Counted from the stretch's first letter, positions 40,171-48,049 are shown. The stretch: DNA of 64,000 nt from Polyangia bacterium (GCA_036267635.1 DATAVR010000139.1:211-64210); one strand, 5' to 3'. Program-made: numbers and translations. The notes: generated by a model from the sequence alone, not told the origin.

Positions 40171-40394
40171 AGCGCGTAGCGGCCCGCGCGCTCTCTGCCC
40201 TCGCGCTGGCCGCGCTCCTCTGCGGCGGCTGCGCGATGGTGCCCCAGAATCGGCGCAAGCACCTGGGCGATCCGATGATGAGCCCCGACGGAGACGCCCT
40301 GCTGACGGCAGGCCAGCGCAAGCTCTACACCTCGCGCGAGTCGGCGGCGGGCGGCGATGCCGCGCCGGCGGGTGGCGGATGCGGCTGCCAGTAG
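40167..40394 (+). CDS. DUF4266-like small lipoprotein
   Basis: TTG 40167 overlaps the upstream stop (TTGA) and yields MKRVAARALSALALAALLCGGC. About 75 aa, with the C-terminal GGGCGCQ motif I associate with DUF4266. Confidence 0.65.
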   Translation: MKRVAARALSALALAALLCGGCAMVPQNRRKHLGDPMMSPDGDALLTAGQRKLYTSRESAAGGDAAPAGGGCGCQ

Positions 40395-41593
40395 CCGGGG
40401 CCGCGCTCCTCTTTCTCGTCGCGCCGGCGGCGCGCGGCGAGCCGGTCGGCAACCCCTTCCTCGCGCCGCCACCCTCGGATCTCGATCAACCCGCGCTCGT
40501 CTCGGCGCCTCGCTACCGGATCGAATCGGTCGCGGTGCGCACCACCACCTTCGATCAGGATGGGCTCGGGTATCAATCGGCGGCCGGACCGGTCTTCGGG
40601 CCCGGTTCGGAGCGGGCGACCATCCTCGAGCCCCAATGCGAGATCGTGGCCGCGCTCGGCGATCGGCTGATCGAGCGGGTCGTCACCTCGGTCGATGTCG
40701 TCACCGCGGCCTCCCCCAACCACCGCCTCTACGGGCTGCCTGTCGGCACGCCGGTCGACGTCGTCAGCTCACCCTCCCGCATCAACGAAGCGGAGGAGAT
40801 CGACTCGGACTCGACCTACGCCTGGAGCCGCACCGCCACCTTGGGGATCCACGCCGACTACCACCTGGAAGAGCCGCTCGAGTCGTGGGGGCTCGGCGCC
40901 CTCGCCACGCGCTCGTTCGCCGGCGACAACACCGTCCTTTCGGGCAGCCTCTACCAGATCGTCGACTGGTTCGACAACTTCAACCTGGCCGGCAAACGCT
41001 TCGGGCGCGACGTGCGCACCACGACCAACGCCAACCTGGGATTTTCCCAGCTGCTGACGCCGACCACCATCGTCCTCGGCAGCTACGGCTTCACGGTTCA
41101 GGCAGGGACGTTGACCAACACCTGGAACAGCGTTCCGCTCTCCGACGCGACCCGCGGCACCGAGGTGGTCCCGCGCGAGCGCCTCCGCCACGCGGTCAGC
41201 GGGCGGCTGCTCCAGTGGCTCCCCTGGAACGGCGCGCTCAAGCTCGGCTACCGGCTCTACGCCGACAGCTGGGGCTCCCTCGCGCACACCGCCGACGCCG
41301 AGCTGTCGCAGCGGCTGGGCCGCCTGACGCTCGACCTCGGCGGGCGCTATCACCGGCAGTCGGCGGTCAGTTTCTTCGGCACTCTGTTCGATCCGGCGGC
41401 CCTCGGGCTTCGCACCGCCGACAGCGATCTCGCCCCGCTGGTCGCTCACGCTCTCTCGGCGGGCGCGCGCTGGGATCAACCGATCGGCCCCCAGGGACAT
41501 CGCATCTACTTCGCGATCAACGGCGAGCACTACTGGCGCACCAACAATCTGCACGTCGACTTCGTCAGTGGCGCGCTAGGATGGCAGCAATGA
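40379..41593 (+). CDS. DUF3570-like putative outer-membrane beta-barrel protein
   Basis: Signal peptide MRLPVAGAALLFLVAPAARG. About 400 aa and beta-rich. Its position directly after DUF4266, with a 16-nt overlap, is the usual pairing. Confidence 0.75.
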   Translation: MRLPVAGAALLFLVAPAARGEPVGNPFLAPPPSDLDQPALVSAPRYRIESVAVRTTTFDQDGLGYQSAAGPVFGPGSERATILEPQCEIVAALGDRLIERVVTSVDVVTAASPNHRLYGLPVGTPVDVVSSPSRINEAEEIDSDSTYAWSRTATLGIHADYHLEEPLESWGLGALATRSFAGDNTVLSGSLYQIVDWFDNFNLAGKRFGRDVRTTTNANLGFSQLLTPTTIVLGSYGFTVQAGTLTNTWNSVPLSDATRGTEVVPRERLRHAVSGRLLQWLPWNGALKLGYRLYADSWGSLAHTADAELSQRLGRLTLDLGGRYHRQSAVSFFGTLFDPAALGLRTADSDLAPLVAHALSAGARWDQPIGPQGHRIYFAINGEHYWRTNNLHVDFVSGALGWQQ

Positions 41594-42159
41594 GGCGGCG
41601 TGGACTGCGAGGGTTGTCGCTCGCGCTCGCGGTCGCGCTCGGCGGCTGCGGAAACGCTGGCTTGCGGCGGGCGAGCGCGCCGACGGCCGTGCCGCCGACG
41701 GCCGTCGACGGTTGGCAGCAGATCCCGCTCACCGATCTCGACGGCCGCCAGGTCACGCTGGCGCAGGTCCTGGCCGGGCGGCCGGCGCTGGTGAACTTCT
41801 GGGCCCCCTGGTGTGAGCGCTGCAAGACCGAGCTTCCCGATCTCGATCGCCTGGCGCGGCGGCTCGACGGCTGTGGTGTCATCGTCGGTGTCGCGGTCGG
41901 CGAGGACGCCTCCCACACGGCAGCCTTCGTGCATGAGCGAGGCCTCCTCTATCCGCAGGTCGTCGACGAGGAATTTCACCTGGCGGACGCCCTTCGACAG
42001 AGCCGCGTCCCGACCACGCTGGTGATCGACGGTGCGGGAGCGATCGTCCACGCCGGGCTGGCGCTCGATCAGGCGGCGCTCGGCGCGCTCCAGGCGGCGC
42101 TCAGCCGCGCGGACGCCGACGGACACTGCAAGGGGAGCCACCGTGCGGGTACGACCTGA
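41590..42159 (+). CDS. TlpA-family thiol:disulfide oxidoreductase lipoprotein
   Basis: ATG 41590 (ATGA overlap, AGGA 8 nt upstream; alternative ATG 41581). Lipobox ALGGC. Thioredoxin motif NFWAPWCERC. Confidence 0.85.
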   Translation: MRRRGLRGLSLALAVALGGCGNAGLRRASAPTAVPPTAVDGWQQIPLTDLDGRQVTLAQVLAGRPALVNFWAPWCERCKTELPDLDRLARRLDGCGVIVGVAVGEDASHTAAFVHERGLLYPQVVDEEFHLADALRQSRVPTTLVIDGAGAIVHAGLALDQAALGALQAALSRADADGHCKGSHRAGTT

Positions 42160-42293
42160 CGAACCACGAACCCTCGTGGGCACGCCCGCGGGATTTCGTG
42201 GCCACGACGCGTCTCAAGCATTAGGATGGCAGCGGAACTGCCGTTCTCGTGGATGAGTGGAATTGAGTACGCGGTTTGCAGATTGATCGAAAC

Positions 42294-42482
42294 ATGTTTA
42301 GAGGCGTGAAGGTGTTTTCGGCGACGAAGGCGAGAGATCGCGAGGCGCTCGGCGAGAACGTGACGAGATGGCTGGTCGAGCATCCGCAGCTCGAGGTCGT
42401 GGATAAGACGGTGACCCAGAGCTCGGACGCCGAGTTCCACTGCCTGACGATCACTCTGTTCTACGAAGCGCCAGCGGTCTGA
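42294..42482 (+). CDS. Small (62 aa) hypothetical protein
   Basis: ATG 42294 in a locally AT-richer leader. No signal peptide. Coding status is uncertain. Confidence 0.45.
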   Translation: MFRGVKVFSATKARDREALGENVTRWLVEHPQLEVVDKTVTQSSDAEFHCLTITLFYEAPAV

Positions 42483-42579: not shown

Positions 42580-43197
42580 TCAGACCCAGTTGTAGTTGAA
42601 GCTGATGCTGACGCGTTCGCCGCGCGTCGGATTGGAGGCGACCTCGTGCCGCAGCCAGCTCTCGAACAGGATCAGCTTGCCAGCGGCGACCTCGTAAGAG
42701 ACCTGCTGCCTGTTCTCCGGGCGGCAGTCGGGACGCTTGGGGGGCGCGCCCATCGTCTTGTCGAGGCGCGGGTCCTCGAACCGGATCCGCGAGCAGCCGC
42801 GCGGCGTGGCGACGTAGTAGGTCCCGCTCACCACCGCCAGCGGGTGCAGGTGCAGCGGGTGAACCGCGTGGCGCGACATCACGTTGACCCAGCAGTCGGT
42901 CATCACCAACCGGCCGCTTTGCAGGTTCATGTCCAGCCGCCGCGCGAACCGGTTCACGTGGCGGCGGATCTTCACCTCCAGGTCGATGAACGTCGAGAAC
43001 GTCTGGTGGAGGTTGGTCATCGTCCCGTACGACGTGTAGCCGGCCGGGTAGTTCTTGCGGCACCAGCGCTGGCCGGCCCGATCGTGGGCGCGGATCTTGT
43101 GGCAGTCGTCGAGCAGCGCGCGCGCGAAGGCGTCGGTGCCGCGCGGCTGCAGCGGCGAATCGTAGATGAGCGTCGGGAACCAGGGGTTGATGGGCAT
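42580..43197 (-). CDS. TIGR02466 / 2OG-Fe(II)-oxygenase-like (PF13759-type) protein
   Basis: Starts MPINPWFPTLIY. Contains the HPLHLHPLAVVSGTYYV and LFESWLRHEV..N motifs of this family. Starts 2 nt after the radical SAM stop. Confidence 0.8.
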   Translation of the reverse strand: MPINPWFPTLIYDSPLQPRGTDAFARALLDDCHKIRAHDRAGQRWCRKNYPAGYTSYGTMTNLHQTFSTFIDLEVKIRRHVNRFARRLDMNLQSGRLVMTDCWVNVMSRHAVHPLHLHPLAVVSGTYYVATPRGCSRIRFEDPRLDKTMGAPPKRPDCRPENRQQVSYEVAAGKLILFESWLRHEVASNPTRGERVSISFNYNWV

Positions 43198-43199
43198 GG

Positions 43200-45155
43200 T
43201 CAGGCGGCGGCGAGCGCCTTGGCGATCAAGTCGGCGGGGACCTGCGCGGCCGGGACCTTCCGGCGCGGACGTCGGGCCGCGCCGCCAGAAAACCAGGACC
43301 GCACGTCGAGGTCCAGCCCCACGCCGTGCATGTAGTTGTAGAGCGCCTTGCGCAGCCCCTCGCCGAGGAAGTCGTGGTCGGTGCCGGTCGGATCGGCGAA
43401 CGGCAGCTCGTTGCGCGCGAAGGCGGCCGGTTCCCCGAAGGCGGCGGCCGGTTCCTTGAAGAGGCGAATCCCGAACTTCTTCGGATGCAGCCCGATCGGG
43501 CTGTGCACCGTGGCGGCGAAGCGGTGCCAGAACGCCGACTGGATGCACCCCTCGTCGAACAGCTGCCGCACCCGCTCGAGCGCGTCGATCGTCTCCTGCT
43601 CGGTCTCGGTCGGAAAGCCGTACATCAGGTAGGCGTGGACCATCACGCCGGCGTCGGTGAAGGCGCGGGTCACGCGCGCCACCTGCTCGACGGTGACCCC
43701 CTTCTGCATCAGCGCCAGCAGCCGATTGGACGCGACCTCGAGGCCGCCCGTGACGGCGATGCAGCCCGCGCGCGCCATCAGCTCGCAGAGCGCGGGGCTG
43801 AACGTCTTTTCGAACCGGATGTTCCCCCACCAGGTGATCTCGACGCCGCGCTCGAGCAGCCGCTCGGAGAGCGCGCGCAACATCGCCGGCGGGGCCGCCT
43901 CGTCGACGAAGTGAAAGCCGGTCTGGCCGGTCTCGGTGACCAGCGCGACGACGCGGTCGACGATCAGATCGGCCGAGGCCGCCTCGTAGCGGCCGATGTA
44001 GGGGAGCGAGACGTCGCAGAAGCTGCACTTCTTCCAGTAGCAGCCGTGCGCGAGCGTCAGCTTGTTCCAGCGCCCGTCCGACCAGAGGCGGTGCATCGGG
44101 TTCAGCATCTCGAACAGGGAGACGTAGCGATCGAGCGGCAGCCCGGCGTAGGTCGGCGTCCCGGTCTCCGTGTGCGGCACGTCGCTCGCCCTTGCGTCGG
44201 TCTTGAGGACCACGCGGCCGTTCTCGCGCACGAACGTCCGGTGCAGCGGCGCCGGCTGGCCCACCTGGCCGCCCGCGCCGAGGTGCCGCAGCAGGCTCAG
44301 GAGCGGGCGCTCCCCGTCGTCGAGCGTCACGTAGTCGAAGCTGTCGAACACGCGCGGCTCGCCGAGCTCGCGCAGCTCGGTGTTGACGTAGCCGCCGCCC
44401 AGGACCAAGCGCGCCGCGGGGCGCGCGCGCCGGATCGCCCGCGCCAGGCGGAACGCGCCGTAGACGTTGCCGGGGAAGGGCGCGGTGATCCCCACGACGT
44501 CGGGGCGGTGCTGGGCCGCCAGCTCGGCGCCGATCGTGTCGGTGAGCTCGTCGACCAGCGTGGCCGGTCCCTCCAGCGCCGCCGCCAGCGGATCGAAGCT
44601 GGCGGCGCTGGTGGCCAGCTTTTCGGCGTAGCGTGACAGCTCGAAGCGCGGGTCGATCCCGTCGCGGATGGCGTCGGCGACGTCGTCGACGTAGAGGCTG
44701 GCGAGGTGTTTGGCCCGATCGGCGAGCGGCAGCGCGCGGTAGGCGGTGGCCAGCGGCGCGTCGCCCGCGTCAGCCTGCTCGAGCGCGCGCGAGAGCGGCG
44801 CGAAGCGCGGCCCTTCGGGCAGGAGCCGCCGGCGGGCGATGCGCGACGCCAGCTTCGGATCGCGGCCCTGCAAAAAGCTGACGGCGGCGTCGACCGTCTC
44901 GACGTAGCGTTCGCCGTTGCGGGCGAACGCCTCGACCGAGGCCGAACCCCGGCGGGAGAGCGCCGCGCGCACCCGCCTGAGCCCTTCGCGGCAATAAAGA
45001 CGCAGAAACAGCTCGAGCGCCGGATCGGCCTGCGCGATCTCCAGCCCCAGCTCGTCCGCGTGCAGTCGCAGGAACCCCGCCAGATACGCCGTCGCCGGGT
45101 AGGGCGTGTTGAGCTGCACCATCGGCGCCGTCAGCAGGAGTACGCGCATCGGCAT
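43200..45155 (-). CDS. B12-binding-domain radical SAM protein
   Basis: N-terminal Rossmann-like B12 domain (VVGITAPFPGN...LVLGGGY). Cluster motif HGCYWKKCSFCD (CX4CX2C). GGLE and the downstream TIM-barrel pattern. Confidence 0.9.
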   Translation of the reverse strand: MPMRVLLLTAPMVQLNTPYPATAYLAGFLRLHADELGLEIAQADPALELFLRLYCREGLRRVRAALSRRGSASVEAFARNGERYVETVDAAVSFLQGRDPKLASRIARRRLLPEGPRFAPLSRALEQADAGDAPLATAYRALPLADRAKHLASLYVDDVADAIRDGIDPRFELSRYAEKLATSAASFDPLAAALEGPATLVDELTDTIGAELAAQHRPDVVGITAPFPGNVYGAFRLARAIRRARPAARLVLGGGYVNTELRELGEPRVFDSFDYVTLDDGERPLLSLLRHLGAGGQVGQPAPLHRTFVRENGRVVLKTDARASDVPHTETGTPTYAGLPLDRYVSLFEMLNPMHRLWSDGRWNKLTLAHGCYWKKCSFCDVSLPYIGRYEAASADLIVDRVVALVTETGQTGFHFVDEAAPPAMLRALSERLLERGVEITWWGNIRFEKTFSPALCELMARAGCIAVTGGLEVASNRLLALMQKGVTVEQVARVTRAFTDAGVMVHAYLMYGFPTETEQETIDALERVRQLFDEGCIQSAFWHRFAATVHSPIGLHPKKFGIRLFKEPAAAFGEPAAFARNELPFADPTGTDHDFLGEGLRKALYNYMHGVGLDLDVRSWFSGGAARRPRRKVPAAQVPADLIAKALAAA

Positions 45156-45168
45156 TCGGATGGATCGA

Positions 45169-45831
45169 TTACCTCGAAACGCGCAGCCGCGCCCGTTGCG
45201 GCGCCAGGCCCGCGCGGCGGAGCGTGGCGGTCACCACCAGCCCGTCGCGCATCGCCGCCGGGAACGACACCTCGACCGGGACCGTCTCCGTGACCCGACC
45301 AGCGTGCTCGCAGCGGCGGCACCAGACGCCACCCGGCCTGGCCACGCCGCCGCAGGTGGGGCAGAGAATCAGGAGCGGCATCTCGACGACCGCGGTGCCG
45401 CCCCGGAGCGCCTCGCCCGCGCTCAGCTGGAGCTCCAGCACACCGTCCGCGTCGAGCCGCGCGGCCCCGGCCGCGACCAGGCGCTCGAGCGGCCCCGAAA
45501 GCCGCGCGACGAGATTGGGGATCGGCCGCTGCCAGGAAGCGCTCCACCCGACCGCCCCGACCGTCCAGGAACGGCCGTCCGACTCCGACGCCGCCCGACC
45601 GAACGCCCGCTCGCGCTCGAACAGGTGCGCGTCGTACGCCGTGCGCGCCGTCGGATCGGACAGCATCCGGTAGGCCTCGGCGATCCGTGCGAAGGTCTCG
45701 CCGCTGGCCGCGCCGGCACGATCGGGGTGATGTTTCAGCGCCAGTTGGCGGTAGGCGCGCCGGATCTCCGCCCCGGTCGCGGCGCGCGCCACGCCGAGAA
45801 GAACGTAAAGGTCGTCGGGCCCCTCCCGCAC
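45169..45831 (-). CDS. J-domain protein with single Cys4 zinc-ribbon-like motif
   Basis: J-domain DLYVLLGV...[12 protein letters not shown] (HPD). Later CPTCGG...WCRRCEHAG. Lies 13 nt upstream of the radical SAM gene. Confidence 0.85.
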
Positions 45832-46071
45832 GCGCCGATGTTAGCGCCGGAACGACCGTTGCGGCGGCCGCACCACGAAGCCGACGCGCCGTTGATTTTT
45901 AGCCGAAGCCCGTCGAGATCAGTCAAGATTCGGCGTCGCCGACCGCCTCGCCGTCTGCTGATTCCGTGAAGATCCGCCCCCTGCCCCTCCCTCTCACGTC
46001 TTGAGCTCGAAGTCCGAGCCTCGCCTCAGGTTCTTTTCCCCTTTCATTAACTCCTTCGCTTCGGAGAGACC

Positions 46072-47583
46072 ATGAAGAGACCCCGGGCCCTCCTTCTGTT
46101 GGCCAGCCTCGCCGTCGCCGCGTGCGCCAACTCCGAACCTGCTGGCGGGGGAAGCGGGGGAGCTACCGCCTCGGGGGGAACCAACGGCAGCGGTGGGGCC
46201 AGCGGAAAAGGCGGTTCCGGTAGCGGCGGCACCACCGCTTCGGGCGGCGCGACCGGCAGCGGCGGCGCCACCGCCACCGGCGGAACCACCGGCGCGGCGG
46301 GAATGAAGGGGACCGGCGGCACCACCGCCACCGGCGGCGCGACGGGCACCGGCGGCGCGACCGGCAGCGGCGGATCGGCGGGCGCCACGGGAACCGGTGG
46401 CGCGGTCGGCAGCGGAGGCGCCGTCGGCAGCGGCGGTGCTGGCGCCACGGGCGGCGCGACCGGCGCCGGCGGCATGGCGGGAGCCAAGGGAACCGGCGGT
46501 GCCGCTGGAACCACGGCCAGCGGCGGAACCACCGGCGCGGGCGGAACGACCGCCACGGGCGGCGCCACCGGCGCTGCCTCGAGCGTGCACGTGGTCGGCA
46601 ACCAGATCTACGACGGCACGACCGTGATTCGCCTGATGGGCGCCAATCGCCCGGGGGGCGAATACTCCTGTGTGAAGGGCACCAACGTCTGGGACCCCGC
46701 CGACGGCTCCGGCAACAACCAGGCGACCATCACTGCGATGCTTTCGTGGAAGATCAACGCGGTGCGGATTCCGCTCAACGAAGACTGCTGGCTATCGCTC
46801 AACGGCGTCAAGACCGGCGGCACGACCTACCAGAACGCGATCCAGACCTGGGTCAACCTGCTGCTGCAAAACAACATCTACCCGATCCTCGATCTGCACT
46901 GGACAGAGAACAATGGGGCCCAGGCGACCGGCCAGCAGCCGATGCCCGACATGGCGCATGCGCCGACGTTCTGGGGTCAGGTCGCGGCGGCGTACAAGAA
47001 TTCGCCCAAGGTGATCTTCGACCTCTTCAACGAGCCGTACCCCGACAGCAACACCGAGGCCACCGCCGCCTGGACCTGCTGGCGCGACGGTGGCACCTGC
47101 ACCGGGATGTCGTACGCGGCCGCCGGCATGCAGTCGATGCTGACCGCCGTCCGCAACGCCGGCGCCGACAACCTGATCCTGCTCGGCGGCATCGAGTACT
47201 CGAACGATCTGTCGCAGTGGCTGACCTACAAACCGACCGATCCGGCCAACAACTTCGCCGCTTCCTGGCACGTCTATCCCAACAGCAACTACACCAACAG
47301 CCACACGTTGATGATGGACGCGATGGGGGTCGCGGGGATGGTCCCCATCGTGGCGACGGAGATCGGCGGCGTCCTCAGCGGCTGCACTGCCACCAGCGGT
47401 ACCGACGACGGCTCGTTCATCACCATGGTCATGAGCTACCTCGACGGGCTCAGCCCGCCGCAGAGCTACGTCGGCTGGTCCTGGAGCACCGACGACACGC
47501 CGGTCCTGATCTCGAACTACAACGGCACCGCCGTCTGCAGCGGCCCGACATACAAGGCGCACCTGCTGGCGACGCCCCACTGA
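46072..47583 (+). CDS. Glycoside hydrolase family 5 (cellulase-type) lipoprotein with long Gly/Thr/Ala-rich linker
   Basis: Lipobox LAVAAC. About 150-aa GGxxGxGG low-complexity region. Catalytic-type motifs FDLFNEP and VATEIG. Confidence 0.85.
   Translation: MKRPRALLLLASLAVAACANSEPAGGGSGGATASGGTNGSGGASGKGGSGSGGTTASGGATGSGGATATGGTTGAAGMKGTGGTTATGGATGTGGATGSGGSAGATGTGGAVGSGGAVGSGGAGATGGATGAGGMAGAKGTGGAAGTTASGGTTGAGGTTATGGATGAASSVHVVGNQIYDGTTVIRLMGANRPGGEYSCVKGTNVWDPADGSGNNQATITAMLSWKINAVRIPLNEDCWLSLNGVKTGGTTYQNAIQTWVNLLLQNNIYPILDLHWTENNGAQATGQQPMPDMAHAPTFWGQVAAAYKNSPKVIFDLFNEPYPDSNTEATAAWTCWRDGGTCTGMSYAAAGMQSMLTAVRNAGADNLILLGGIEYSNDLSQWLTYKPTDPANNFAASWHVYPNSNYTNSHTLMMDAMGVAGMVPIVATEIGGVLSGCTATSGTDDGSFITMVMSYLDGLSPPQSYVGWSWSTDDTPVLISNYNGTAVCSGPTYKAHLLATPH
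46129..46590 (+). repeat. Low-complexity GGC/ACC-rich coding repeat (Gly-Thr-Ala linker)
   Basis: Seen directly. It generates Ala/Pro/Gly-rich shadow ORFs on the opposite strand. Confidence 0.85.
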
Positions 47584-47602: not shown

Positions 47603-48049
47603 ATGGCGACCCCCGACGAGACGATCGACGCGGCTTGGGAGACGGTCTTCGGTACGCTGGCCCGACTGCGCGAGCGCTGGCCCTCGACCGACTGGTCGTA
47701 CGACCGCCGGCTCCGCTGCGTCGCCTCTTCGATCCCACTCGCCGGCGCGGCCGGAGCGCGGACCGCGTTCGCCGAGGCGCTCCCCACCTCCTGGTCCGCG
47801 GAGACGCTGAGCGGCGCACCGGCCAGCGTCCAAGCGCTCGCTGAGTCGTGCGGCGGGCTGCGGGCGTCGCAGCAACTCCTCTGGGGCGGCGACGCCGACG
47901 GAGCAGGCGCGTTCGGCCTCTGGTGGCCTTGGGGCGACGGGACGACAGTTACGTTACGAATCGGTCTGCACGGCCTCGATCAGCCGAAGGTTCGCTACCC
48001 GCGGCTGCGCGATGTTTTCGGTATTCCGCAGTCGCCCGGACCGGCCTAG
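47603..48049 (+). CDS. Hypothetical protein
   Basis: 148-aa ORF with high GC3, lying 20 nt after the GH5 stop. No recognisable motif. Confidence 0.5.
   Translation: MATPDETIDAAWETVFGTLARLRERWPSTDWSYDRRLRCVASSIPLAGAAGARTAFAEALPTSWSAETLSGAPASVQALAESCGGLRASQQLLWGGDADGAGAFGLWWPWGDGTTVTLRIGLHGLDQPKVRYPRLRDVFGIPQSPGPA

Follow-up and report, generated by a model that had tools for sequence, protein, structure and literature searches.

The operon described here lies on the minus strand of a 64,000-nucleotide (nt) stretch of DNA from a Polyangia bacterium (GCA_036267635.1, DATAVR010000139.1:211-64210), and the whole of this stretch is referred to as the window. Its three genes encode a J-domain protein, a radical S-adenosylmethionine (SAM) enzyme of the type carrying a B12-binding domain, and a small cupin-fold protein of the TIGR02466 family, called the oxygenase below. 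The radical SAM enzyme and the TIGR02466 protein form a recurring core to which the J-domain gene was added later in one sub-clade, because the pair recurs without the J gene in neighboring lineages and, independently, in a distant locus (L064). The complete trio is conserved only within one clade of uncultured Polyangia. The preferred reading, to which we give a probability of about 0.45, is that of a clade-specific operon in which the two core enzymes act on a shared substrate and the J-protein recruits DnaK.

Organization of the operon

The three genes are arranged as follows, with coordinates counted from the first letter of the window; each rests on an open reading frame (ORF) call together with the profile in brackets.

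45169..45831, minus strand: J-domain gene, probable truncated DnaJ-like co-chaperone, 220 aa (PF00226)
43200..45155, minus strand: radical SAM gene, B12-binding-domain type, 651 aa (PF04055)
42580..43197, minus strand: oxygenase gene, TIGR02466 / PF13759 cupin fold, putative Fe(II)/2-oxoglutarate enzyme, 205 aa (TIGR02466)

The first-pass annotation, which was made from the sequence alone, had described three minus-strand genes separated by 13 and 2 nt, and this arrangement and the domains it assigned are borne out by the sequence, Pfam and NCBIfam. The same holds for the 651-aa length of the radical SAM enzyme and for the single CxxC...CxxC pair in the J-protein. Read directly, the J gene ends in TAA (45171-45169) and is followed after 13 nt by the radical SAM ATG at 45155, and the radical SAM gene ends in TGA (43202-43200), 2 nt ('cc') before the oxygenase ATG at 43197. 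A second radical SAM ATG, at 45149, matches the orthologue start 'MRVLLL'. Because the orthologues begin in this way, translation may start there, and the gap to the J gene would then be 19 nt. The mechanically called ORF of the oxygenase (42580-44028) is longer upstream than the gene; the profile match starts at the ATG at 43197, and TIGR02466 covers residues 6-205. The reading frames are supported by the proportion of G and C at third codon positions (GC3), which is 0.90-0.94 in all three. The genes are presumably co-transcribed.

Conservation of the trio and of its core pair

Conservation was surveyed by tblastn of the three proteins against 80 genome loci of the radical SAM family, complemented by 80 metagenome loci and by context look-ups; individual loci carry numbers such as L001. 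Among the genome loci, the J-domain and TIGR02466 genes adjoin the radical SAM gene only in L001, L002 and L005, which belong to Polyangia/Myxococcota and have radical SAM enzymes at least 72% identical to that of the window. The context look-ups add L081 (radical SAM enzyme 73%, J-protein 61%, oxygenase 81% identical) and L083. The first-pass annotation had made its proposal dependent on the conservation of the trio elsewhere. The trio is kept in these five loci, and the conservation does not extend beyond the single Polyangia clade. Among 160 other radical SAM loci, none that lies outside the trio clade has the J-protein, and L082, with a radical SAM enzyme 68% identical, has neither the J-protein nor the oxygenase.

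The pair of radical SAM enzyme and oxygenase has a wider distribution. The oxygenase gene directly follows the radical SAM gene in L001, L002, L005, L081, L083, L156, L064 and two JGI contigs. The J gene is missing from the pair in L156 and on the two JGI contigs, where the gaps are 14 and 2 nt and the upstream neighbor is a nonribosomal peptide synthetase (NRPS) gene in one case and a divergent Aminotran_5 gene in the other. In L064 the radical SAM enzyme is 57% identical to that of the window and the oxygenase only 39%, which makes it a different TIGR02466 paralogue, and the gap is 4 nt. A metagenome scan seeded with L064 gave no close relatives (best 63%), and in L089, the nearest relative of L064, the oxygenase lies 4.4 kb off with unrelated genes between.

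Such a distribution can also be read in another way, with the genes co-transcribed in this clade and sharing no substrate. The J-protein would then be a minor Hsp40 of general function, with unrelated tasks for the oxygenase and the radical SAM enzyme. Neither partner adjoins the radical SAM gene in 75 of the 80 species-level loci and 78 of the 80 metagenome loci, a J orthologue occurs alone in L084, and oxygenases 64-65% identical to that of the window are found away from the radical SAM gene. In addition, every trio locus belongs to one clade, in which the order of p148, a small ORF and a TlpA-like gene (all described below) is also kept. We nevertheless regard this explanation as unlikely. 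TIGR02466 has been recruited beside the radical SAM gene at least twice, with different paralogues (39% identity against 77-93%) and gaps of 2-21 nt, and by our own arithmetic we roughly put the chance expectation for so rare a gene at below 1e-3. The trio also outlasts a replaced downstream flank, as in L081, where an ABC transporter stands instead of the small ORF and the TlpA-like gene and the trio is still intact. That so rare a gene was recruited twice independently speaks for a functional connection between the radical SAM enzyme and TIGR02466.

The oxygenase

The oxygenase is a full-length member of the orphan TIGR02466/PF13759 cupins, scoring 217.6 bits on TIGR02466 against a cut-off of 62.5 and 104 bits on PF13759 against 27. 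It matches the solved structures 3bvc and 2rg4, both entered as 'uncharacterized protein', at E=1e-48. Cupins of this family are common in marine cyanobacteria, cyanophages and phycodnaviruses, and a literature search found no functional study of TIGR02466/PF13759 and no assigned function for a member. The subfamily described here is set apart from other TIGR02466 cupins by its recurrent place directly after a B12-type radical SAM gene, and the family gains in this way its first recurrent partner.

The oxygenase is the best conserved protein of the trio, with 91-93% identity within the clade. H113, H116, H118, H184, R195 and S199 are invariant and S197 nearly so. Fe(II)/2-oxoglutarate oxygenases have an H-x-D/E…H facial triad and an Arg or Lys for the C5 carboxylate of 2-oxoglutarate. 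The arrangement H116-x-H118…H184 with R195/Ser fits this scheme in its His and Arg/Ser residues, but the putative second ligand is His, not Asp/Glu.

The radical SAM enzyme

Membership of the enzyme in the radical SAM superfamily follows from its match to PF04055 over residues 369-528 (48.7 bits, cut-off 29.5), and the B12-binding profile PF02310 gives 28.4 bits, just under its cut-off of 32.1. The cluster motif C372-YWKK-C377-SF-C380 (window 44016-44042) does not have the canonical CxxxCxxC form. It is a spacing variant, Cx4Cx2C, in which all three cysteines are present, and it is kept in about 95% of 81 orthologues. The alignment of these orthologues shows two conserved cysteines, C465 and C537, in addition to C372, C377 and C380 of the motif.

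The first-pass annotation had matched the operon to no known pathway, and the database comparisons agree with it. The radical SAM enzyme remains far under the NCBIfam cut-offs, with 87.1 bits against 281.85 for TIGR03975, 86.8 against 600 for the PhpK family TIGR04479, and 57 for BchE. The weak similarities also include a lipid B12-radical SAM enzyme, and a sequence search of the PDB gives no match. An AlphaFold2 model (predicted TM-score 0.83) has as its top Foldseek hits OxsB (5ul4), MgmA (9ccb), CysS (9n1c) and AprD4 (6fd2), with E=2e-9 to 5e-7 and TM-scores of 0.38-0.44. The modeled fold resembles these enzymes in its N-terminal Rossmann B12-binding-like domain followed by the radical SAM barrel. 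It differs from them in its low identity (14-17%), in the Cx4Cx2C motif, and in a predicted helical insert of about 170 aa within the Rossmann domain. The model would place the enzyme in the B12-binding-domain class, with no close characterized relative. Of the matched enzymes, AprD4 has a B12-binding domain yet is not known to use cobalamin.

Orthologues of the enzyme were found in at least 454 stretches of species-representative genomes, and a metagenome scan gave 591 further stretches. The best 80 of these at least 454 genome stretches are 56-85% identical to the window enzyme, those outside the trio clade being 56-69% identical. They span Myxococcota, Bdellovibrionota, many Betaproteobacteria, Gammaproteobacteria and an Acidobacteriota metagenome-assembled genome (MAG). 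The 81 sequences fall into 20 lineages at 70% identity. The gene is usually single-copy per sampled locus and is not embedded in biosynthetic clusters, and clustering of the neighbors around its loci gave no universal conserved neighbor. The enzyme belongs to a large, old and widespread orthologous family and is probably an ancient stand-alone enzyme. The family is found in hundreds of species, some of them culturable Beta- and Gammaproteobacteria. Cultured carriers are, for instance, Acidovorax temperans DSM 7270 (L060), Zoogloea ramigera NBRC 15342 (L038), Chromobacterium amazonense DSM 26508 (L046), Roseateles chitinivorans P36 (L062) and Aromatoleum tolulyticum ATCC 51758 (L063). The family has no name in curated resources; the operon and its sister arrangements provide its first functional contexts.

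The structural matches bring in another explanation, in which the radical SAM enzyme methylates or rearranges a small molecule, lipid or cofactor, the oxygenase hydroxylates it, and the J-protein gives only folding help. OxsB, CysS and AprD4 belong among natural-product and aminoglycoside enzymes, the radical SAM enzyme is most similar in NCBIfam to PhpK, C-methyltransferases of ribosomally made peptides with post-translational modifications (RiPPs) and the lipid B12-radical SAM enzyme, and one lineage that lacks the J gene has an NRPS module directly upstream. These similarities are, however, of superfamily level only, given the 14-17% identity and the scores far under the cut-offs. Moreover, a single-copy gene that is 56-60% identical across phyla and lies outside biosynthetic clusters suits a housekeeping target, and the only neighbors recurring over several lineages are RNA pseudouridine synthases and TIGR02466. 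A tailoring role is accordingly rated as improbable, at the same level as the sharing of a transcript by unrelated enzymes.

Maturation of a RiPP with an unrecognized precursor peptide is far less probable again, and here the first-pass annotation had already preferred a protein, lipid or cofactor substrate. The top NCBIfam similarity of the radical SAM enzyme, at 87 bits, is to TIGR03975, a 'RiPP maturation radical SAM C-methyltransferase', and a conserved 68-aa ORF (42276-42482, plus strand), kept in L001 and L083, converges with the operon end. The TIGR03975 score is nevertheless far under 281.85, no credible short ORF is present in the 240-nt upstream or the 97-nt downstream spacer of the trio, and in most genomes the radical SAM gene stands alone. 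The 68-aa ORF, which matches no family and is 85-86% conserved in L001 and L083, was considered as the precursor and rejected: it is missing from three of the trio loci (L002, L005 and L081).

Two further neighborhoods of the radical SAM gene were seen. In loci of the Bdellovibrionota type (L015 4106-4909, L020 7089-8036, L025 7138-7899, L031 106-915), a gene of the LOG/TIGR00730 family (nucleotide nucleosidase-like) lies divergently upstream. In many Burkholderiales (e.g., L042-L045 and L054), the radical SAM gene lies beside genes for a PrpR-type sigma-54 activator and an aconitase-like protein, a propionate-catabolism neighborhood that is probably plain synteny.

Pseudouridine synthase neighbors and the RNA precedent

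Genes for pseudouridine synthases flank the radical SAM gene in about 5 of the 20 lineages, in at least four arrangements and from three subfamilies. The first, seen in ten gammaproteobacterial genome loci and in twelve metagenome loci, has an RluE-like gene on the same strand directly downstream, 4-14 nt away (218-235 bits on NF008487; among the loci are L013, L017, L018, L023, L026-L029 and L073). The second has an RluF-like gene (271-321 bits, cut-off 318; L003, L008, L010, L012, L032 and L066). Its place is immediately upstream in the Myxococcota of Kofleriaceae type, and downstream in the Acidobacteriota MAG locus L066. Two loci contain RluA-type genes. In L169 (4072-8704), with a radical SAM enzyme 67% identical to that of the window, RluF-like, radical SAM and RluA-like genes follow one another on one strand with 4-nt overlaps. 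In L064 (1602-5118), an RluA-family gene lies divergently 84 nt upstream of the radical SAM gene, with TIGR02466 4 nt downstream. The chance expectation is about 0.1 lineages by our own rough arithmetic, which assumes some 10 such genes per 4,000 and two neighbors per gene. Because about 5 lineages are observed against about 0.1 expected, the excess of pseudouridine synthases is unlikely to be due to chance. As a separate observation, the RluA-like protein of L169 (6947-8071) is extended at its N-terminus by about 375 aa, with a 'PGTPAP…' repeat and Cys-containing motifs in the added part.

A precedent is RlmX of Escherichia coli. A review and a preprint, both of 2026, describe RlmX as a radical SAM enzyme that depends on cobalamin and, under hypoxia, adds methyl groups at the ribose C5'(S) of D2449 and Cm2498 in 23S rRNA (PMC13602947 and bioRxiv 10.64898/2026.03.01.708810, both citing Ishiguro et al. 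2026, Mol Cell 86:78). By this description RlmX is of the same broad class as the window enzyme, whose family shares operons with 23S rRNA pseudouridine synthases, but the two enzymes belong to different families. RlmN and Cfr are likewise radical SAM enzymes that modify RNA. RlmX, as described, is a precedent for B12-type radical SAM chemistry on rRNA at the peptidyl-transferase center, and RNA, suggested by the neighboring genes, is our leading guess for the substrate.

The label that JGI gives to homologues, YgiQ / UPF0313, was considered as an identity for the radical SAM enzyme and rejected. The enzyme has no match to TIGR03904, PF08497 or PF11842, and an hhalign comparison with E. coli YgiQ gives a probability of 13%, from the cluster motif only; for E. 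coli YgiQ itself the TIGR03904 score is 883 bits. YgiQ is still called uncharacterised by K-12 RefSeq and NCBIfam. We presume that it may be RlmX, an unconfirmed guess that is not relied on here. A TIGR02466 homologue (65% identical to that of the window) was also observed in L085 (7001-9752) and L086 (5069-7820), convergent with a true YgiQ orthologue and 77 nt from it; this orthologue is 61% identical to E. coli YgiQ. Should the guess that YgiQ is RlmX be right, TIGR02466 would be tied a second time to a radical SAM enzyme that modifies rRNA.

The J-protein

The J-domain of the small protein is well defined (PF00226, E=1.7e-19, residues 7-67), and H35-P36-D37 and all four cysteines (CPTCGG…WCxRCE, in the window CPTCGG…WCRRCE) are invariant in 44 homologues. 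The alignment to the bacterial DnaJ profile TIGR02349 covers residues 7-183, reaching into the first Cys motif, at 95.7 bits against a cut-off of 377. The AlphaFold2 model (mean per-residue confidence, pLDDT, 77.6) consists of a helical J-domain, a disordered linker (approximately residues 79-101) and a C-terminal beta domain. Foldseek ranks full-length Hsp40s first, with alignments over both domains: DNAJB13, Thermus thermophilus DnaJ (4j80/6psi/9dvi) and DnaJA2 (7zhs). A weak DnaJ alignment sets the Cys pair at zinc-finger motifs 1 and 4 of DnaJ, in register; in DnaJ these two motifs together form zinc center I.

In its HPD J-domain, linker and beta domain, which aligns to C-terminal domain I, the protein resembles DnaJ and CbpA-like Hsp40s, and its Cys4 site lies at the position of zinc center I. 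In contrast to DnaJ, it has two instead of four CxxCxGxG motifs and no G/F-rich region, second C-terminal domain or dimerization domain, so that the architecture of a class A Hsp40 (G/F region, four CxxCxGxG, two C-terminal domains and dimerization domain) is not present. The 220-aa protein is also short against the 354 positions of the TIGR02349 profile and is limited to one Polyangia clade. The 120 best homologues are all about 220 aa long, 58-100% identical and confined to that clade. An identity with HscB was considered and rejected (TIGR00714, 18.3 bits against a cut-off of 46.75). We infer that the J-protein is a truncated DnaJ that recruits Hsp70, rather than a Dph4-like electron donor.

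The electron-donor role comes from the first-pass annotation, which had compared the operon with diphthamide synthesis and suggested that the J-protein, like Dph4 or Dph3, binds iron through its Cys4 site and feeds electrons to the cluster of the radical SAM enzyme. Both systems have a J-domain or small Cys4 protein beside a SAM-radical [4Fe-4S] enzyme (Dph4 being DNAJC24, and Dph3 also Kti11). The four cysteines are invariant, the J gene lies immediately upstream of the radical SAM gene, the J-domain profile matches DNAJC24 (2l6l) at E=2.9e-8, and the isolated C-terminal fragment has weak, non-significant rubredoxin-like matches (E=0.1-0.2). The analogy is nevertheless not supported, and this role for the J-protein is considered very unlikely. 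The match to DNAJC24 barely exceeds the J-domain and ranks far under ordinary DnaJ, and no CSL zinc finger (zf-CSL, PF05207) is detected in the whole protein or in its C-terminal fragment. The Cys pair lies inside the beta domain, as in DnaJ, and in register with motifs 1 and 4, so that its context is DnaJ-like, and the model is nearest to full-length Hsp40s. The J-protein is also dispensable for the radical SAM family at large: more than 150 radical SAM loci have no such protein nearby, and in L084 the J orthologue stands apart from the radical SAM gene. The enzymes differ as well, Dph2 being not a canonical radical SAM enzyme, whereas the window enzyme has the PF04055 barrel.

A Pfam search at E<=10 with the C-terminal half of six J-proteins returned sub-threshold noise and no DnaJ_C, DnaJ zinc finger or zf-CSL, and a phmmer search of the C-terminal fragment against the PDB gave DnaJ-like alignments only, which are not significant. 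A literature search combining J-domain, radical SAM and cobalamin found no functional study, and to our knowledge no bacterium has been described in which a radical SAM enzyme is encoded together with a truncated DnaJ dedicated to it. Beside the lone J orthologue of L084 (8001-11533), genes for a 258-aa and a 508-aa protein without Pfam match were observed.

Proposed mechanism

In the proposed mechanism, the radical SAM enzyme and the TIGR02466 oxygenase would work on the same substrate, encoded elsewhere and most likely a conserved macromolecule. The leading candidate is RNA, namely 23S rRNA near the peptidyl-transferase center. The radical SAM enzyme would carry out an O2-sensitive radical functionalization of a C-H bond, probably a methylation, and the oxygenase would provide a later O2-dependent step or an aerobic alternative to it. 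The J-protein, added last, would keep the Hsp70-stimulating J-domain and one beta domain of the client-binding type with a single zinc site. Its most likely task would be the recruitment of DnaK, either to the large enzyme with its two cofactors or to the substrate particle, with no part in electron supply. Known systems follow a related logic, in which one translation target is modified by a radical or Fe-S enzyme as well as by a hydroxylase, or O2-independent and O2-dependent routes run in parallel. Examples of such behavior are EpmB/EpmC (acting on elongation factor P, EF-P), RlhA, and TrhP/TrhO; they serve as analogy only and have no homology to the operon proteins.

The full module can be stated more boldly. 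The radical SAM enzyme would modify 23S rRNA together with RluE/RluF/RluA-type synthases, TIGR02466 would be an RNA or ribosome oxygenase, and the mini-DnaJ would bring DnaK to a ribosome-assembly intermediate or to the enzyme. We hold this complete version to be speculative and rather doubtful, and an RNA substrate by itself is rated as somewhat more probable than the module in which RNA, oxygenase and chaperone are all combined.

Several observations weigh against the proposed explanation. On the side of the enzymes, PF02310 scores below its cut-off, so that cobalamin binding by the radical SAM enzyme is only predicted, and the oxygenase has H-x-H instead of the classical H-x-D/E, which makes its 2-oxoglutarate-hydroxylase chemistry putative. 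On the side of the substrate, no pseudouridine synthase is encoded in the 64-kb window, and the link to RNA is borrowed from sister lineages. Among the closest solved structures, OxsB, CysS and AprD4 act on small molecules, MgmA acts on protein, and none acts on RNA. The radical SAM orthologues are acidic (median isoelectric point, pI, 6.1), which neither supports nor rules out that they bind RNA. Taken alone, the C-terminal domain of the J-protein has no significant DnaJ_C or DnaJ zinc-finger match. Finally, most radical SAM loci, including all those of Betaproteobacteria, have no adjacent oxygenase, J-protein or pseudouridine synthase, the J orthologue of L084 (62% identical) has neither a radical SAM gene nor an oxygenase gene nearby, and some close oxygenase homologues (L087) are located away from the radical SAM gene.

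If the complete version is true, the operon would form a ribosome-modification module that responds to oxygen and has a chaperone adaptor of its own. The radical SAM enzyme would then represent another B12-type family with ties to rRNA enzymes, unrelated to that of RlmX, which would suggest that such ribosome chemistry is more widespread than has been supposed. The J-protein could show how Hsp70 handles large multi-cofactor radical enzymes or their substrates.

Flanking genes and the p148 block

Two further features lie upstream of the trio.

45832..46071, strand not assigned: 240-nt spacer on the upstream side of the J gene, where the operon promoter presumably lies
47603..48049, plus strand: p148 gene, conserved 148-aa protein without family, possible fourth member of the block (from synteny)

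A scan of the spacer gave no sigma-70-like promoter hit, and the promoter and terminator scan was at background level. Rfam and tRNA scans of the 64-kb window were empty, and no cobalamin riboswitch is present in the window, because there is no Rfam match.

The p148 protein has no Pfam, NCBIfam or PDB match, and its gene may belong to the block as a fourth member. It lies on the strand opposite to the J gene at a distance of 95-135 nt in L001, L002, L081 and L083, of 1.2 kb in L005 and of 1.77 kb in the window. It is missing where the J-protein stands alone (L084) and where the pair of radical SAM enzyme and oxygenase stands alone (L156). In the window, the interval between the J and p148 genes is occupied by a plus-strand gene (46072-47583) for a secreted-looking cellulase of glycoside hydrolase family 5 (GH5) with a long Gly/Thr/Ala/Ser-rich linker. 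This gene seems to have been inserted into the conserved block, because J and p148 are direct divergent neighbors in L001, L002, L081 and L083.

On the downstream side, beyond the 68-aa ORF, the plus strand encodes a DUF3570 protein and then a TlpA/ResA-like thioredoxin-fold protein (40379-42159). The TlpA/ResA-like gene is syntenic in L001 and L083, and more redoxin genes together with DsbA-repeat genes are found upstream of the trio in L081 and L083.

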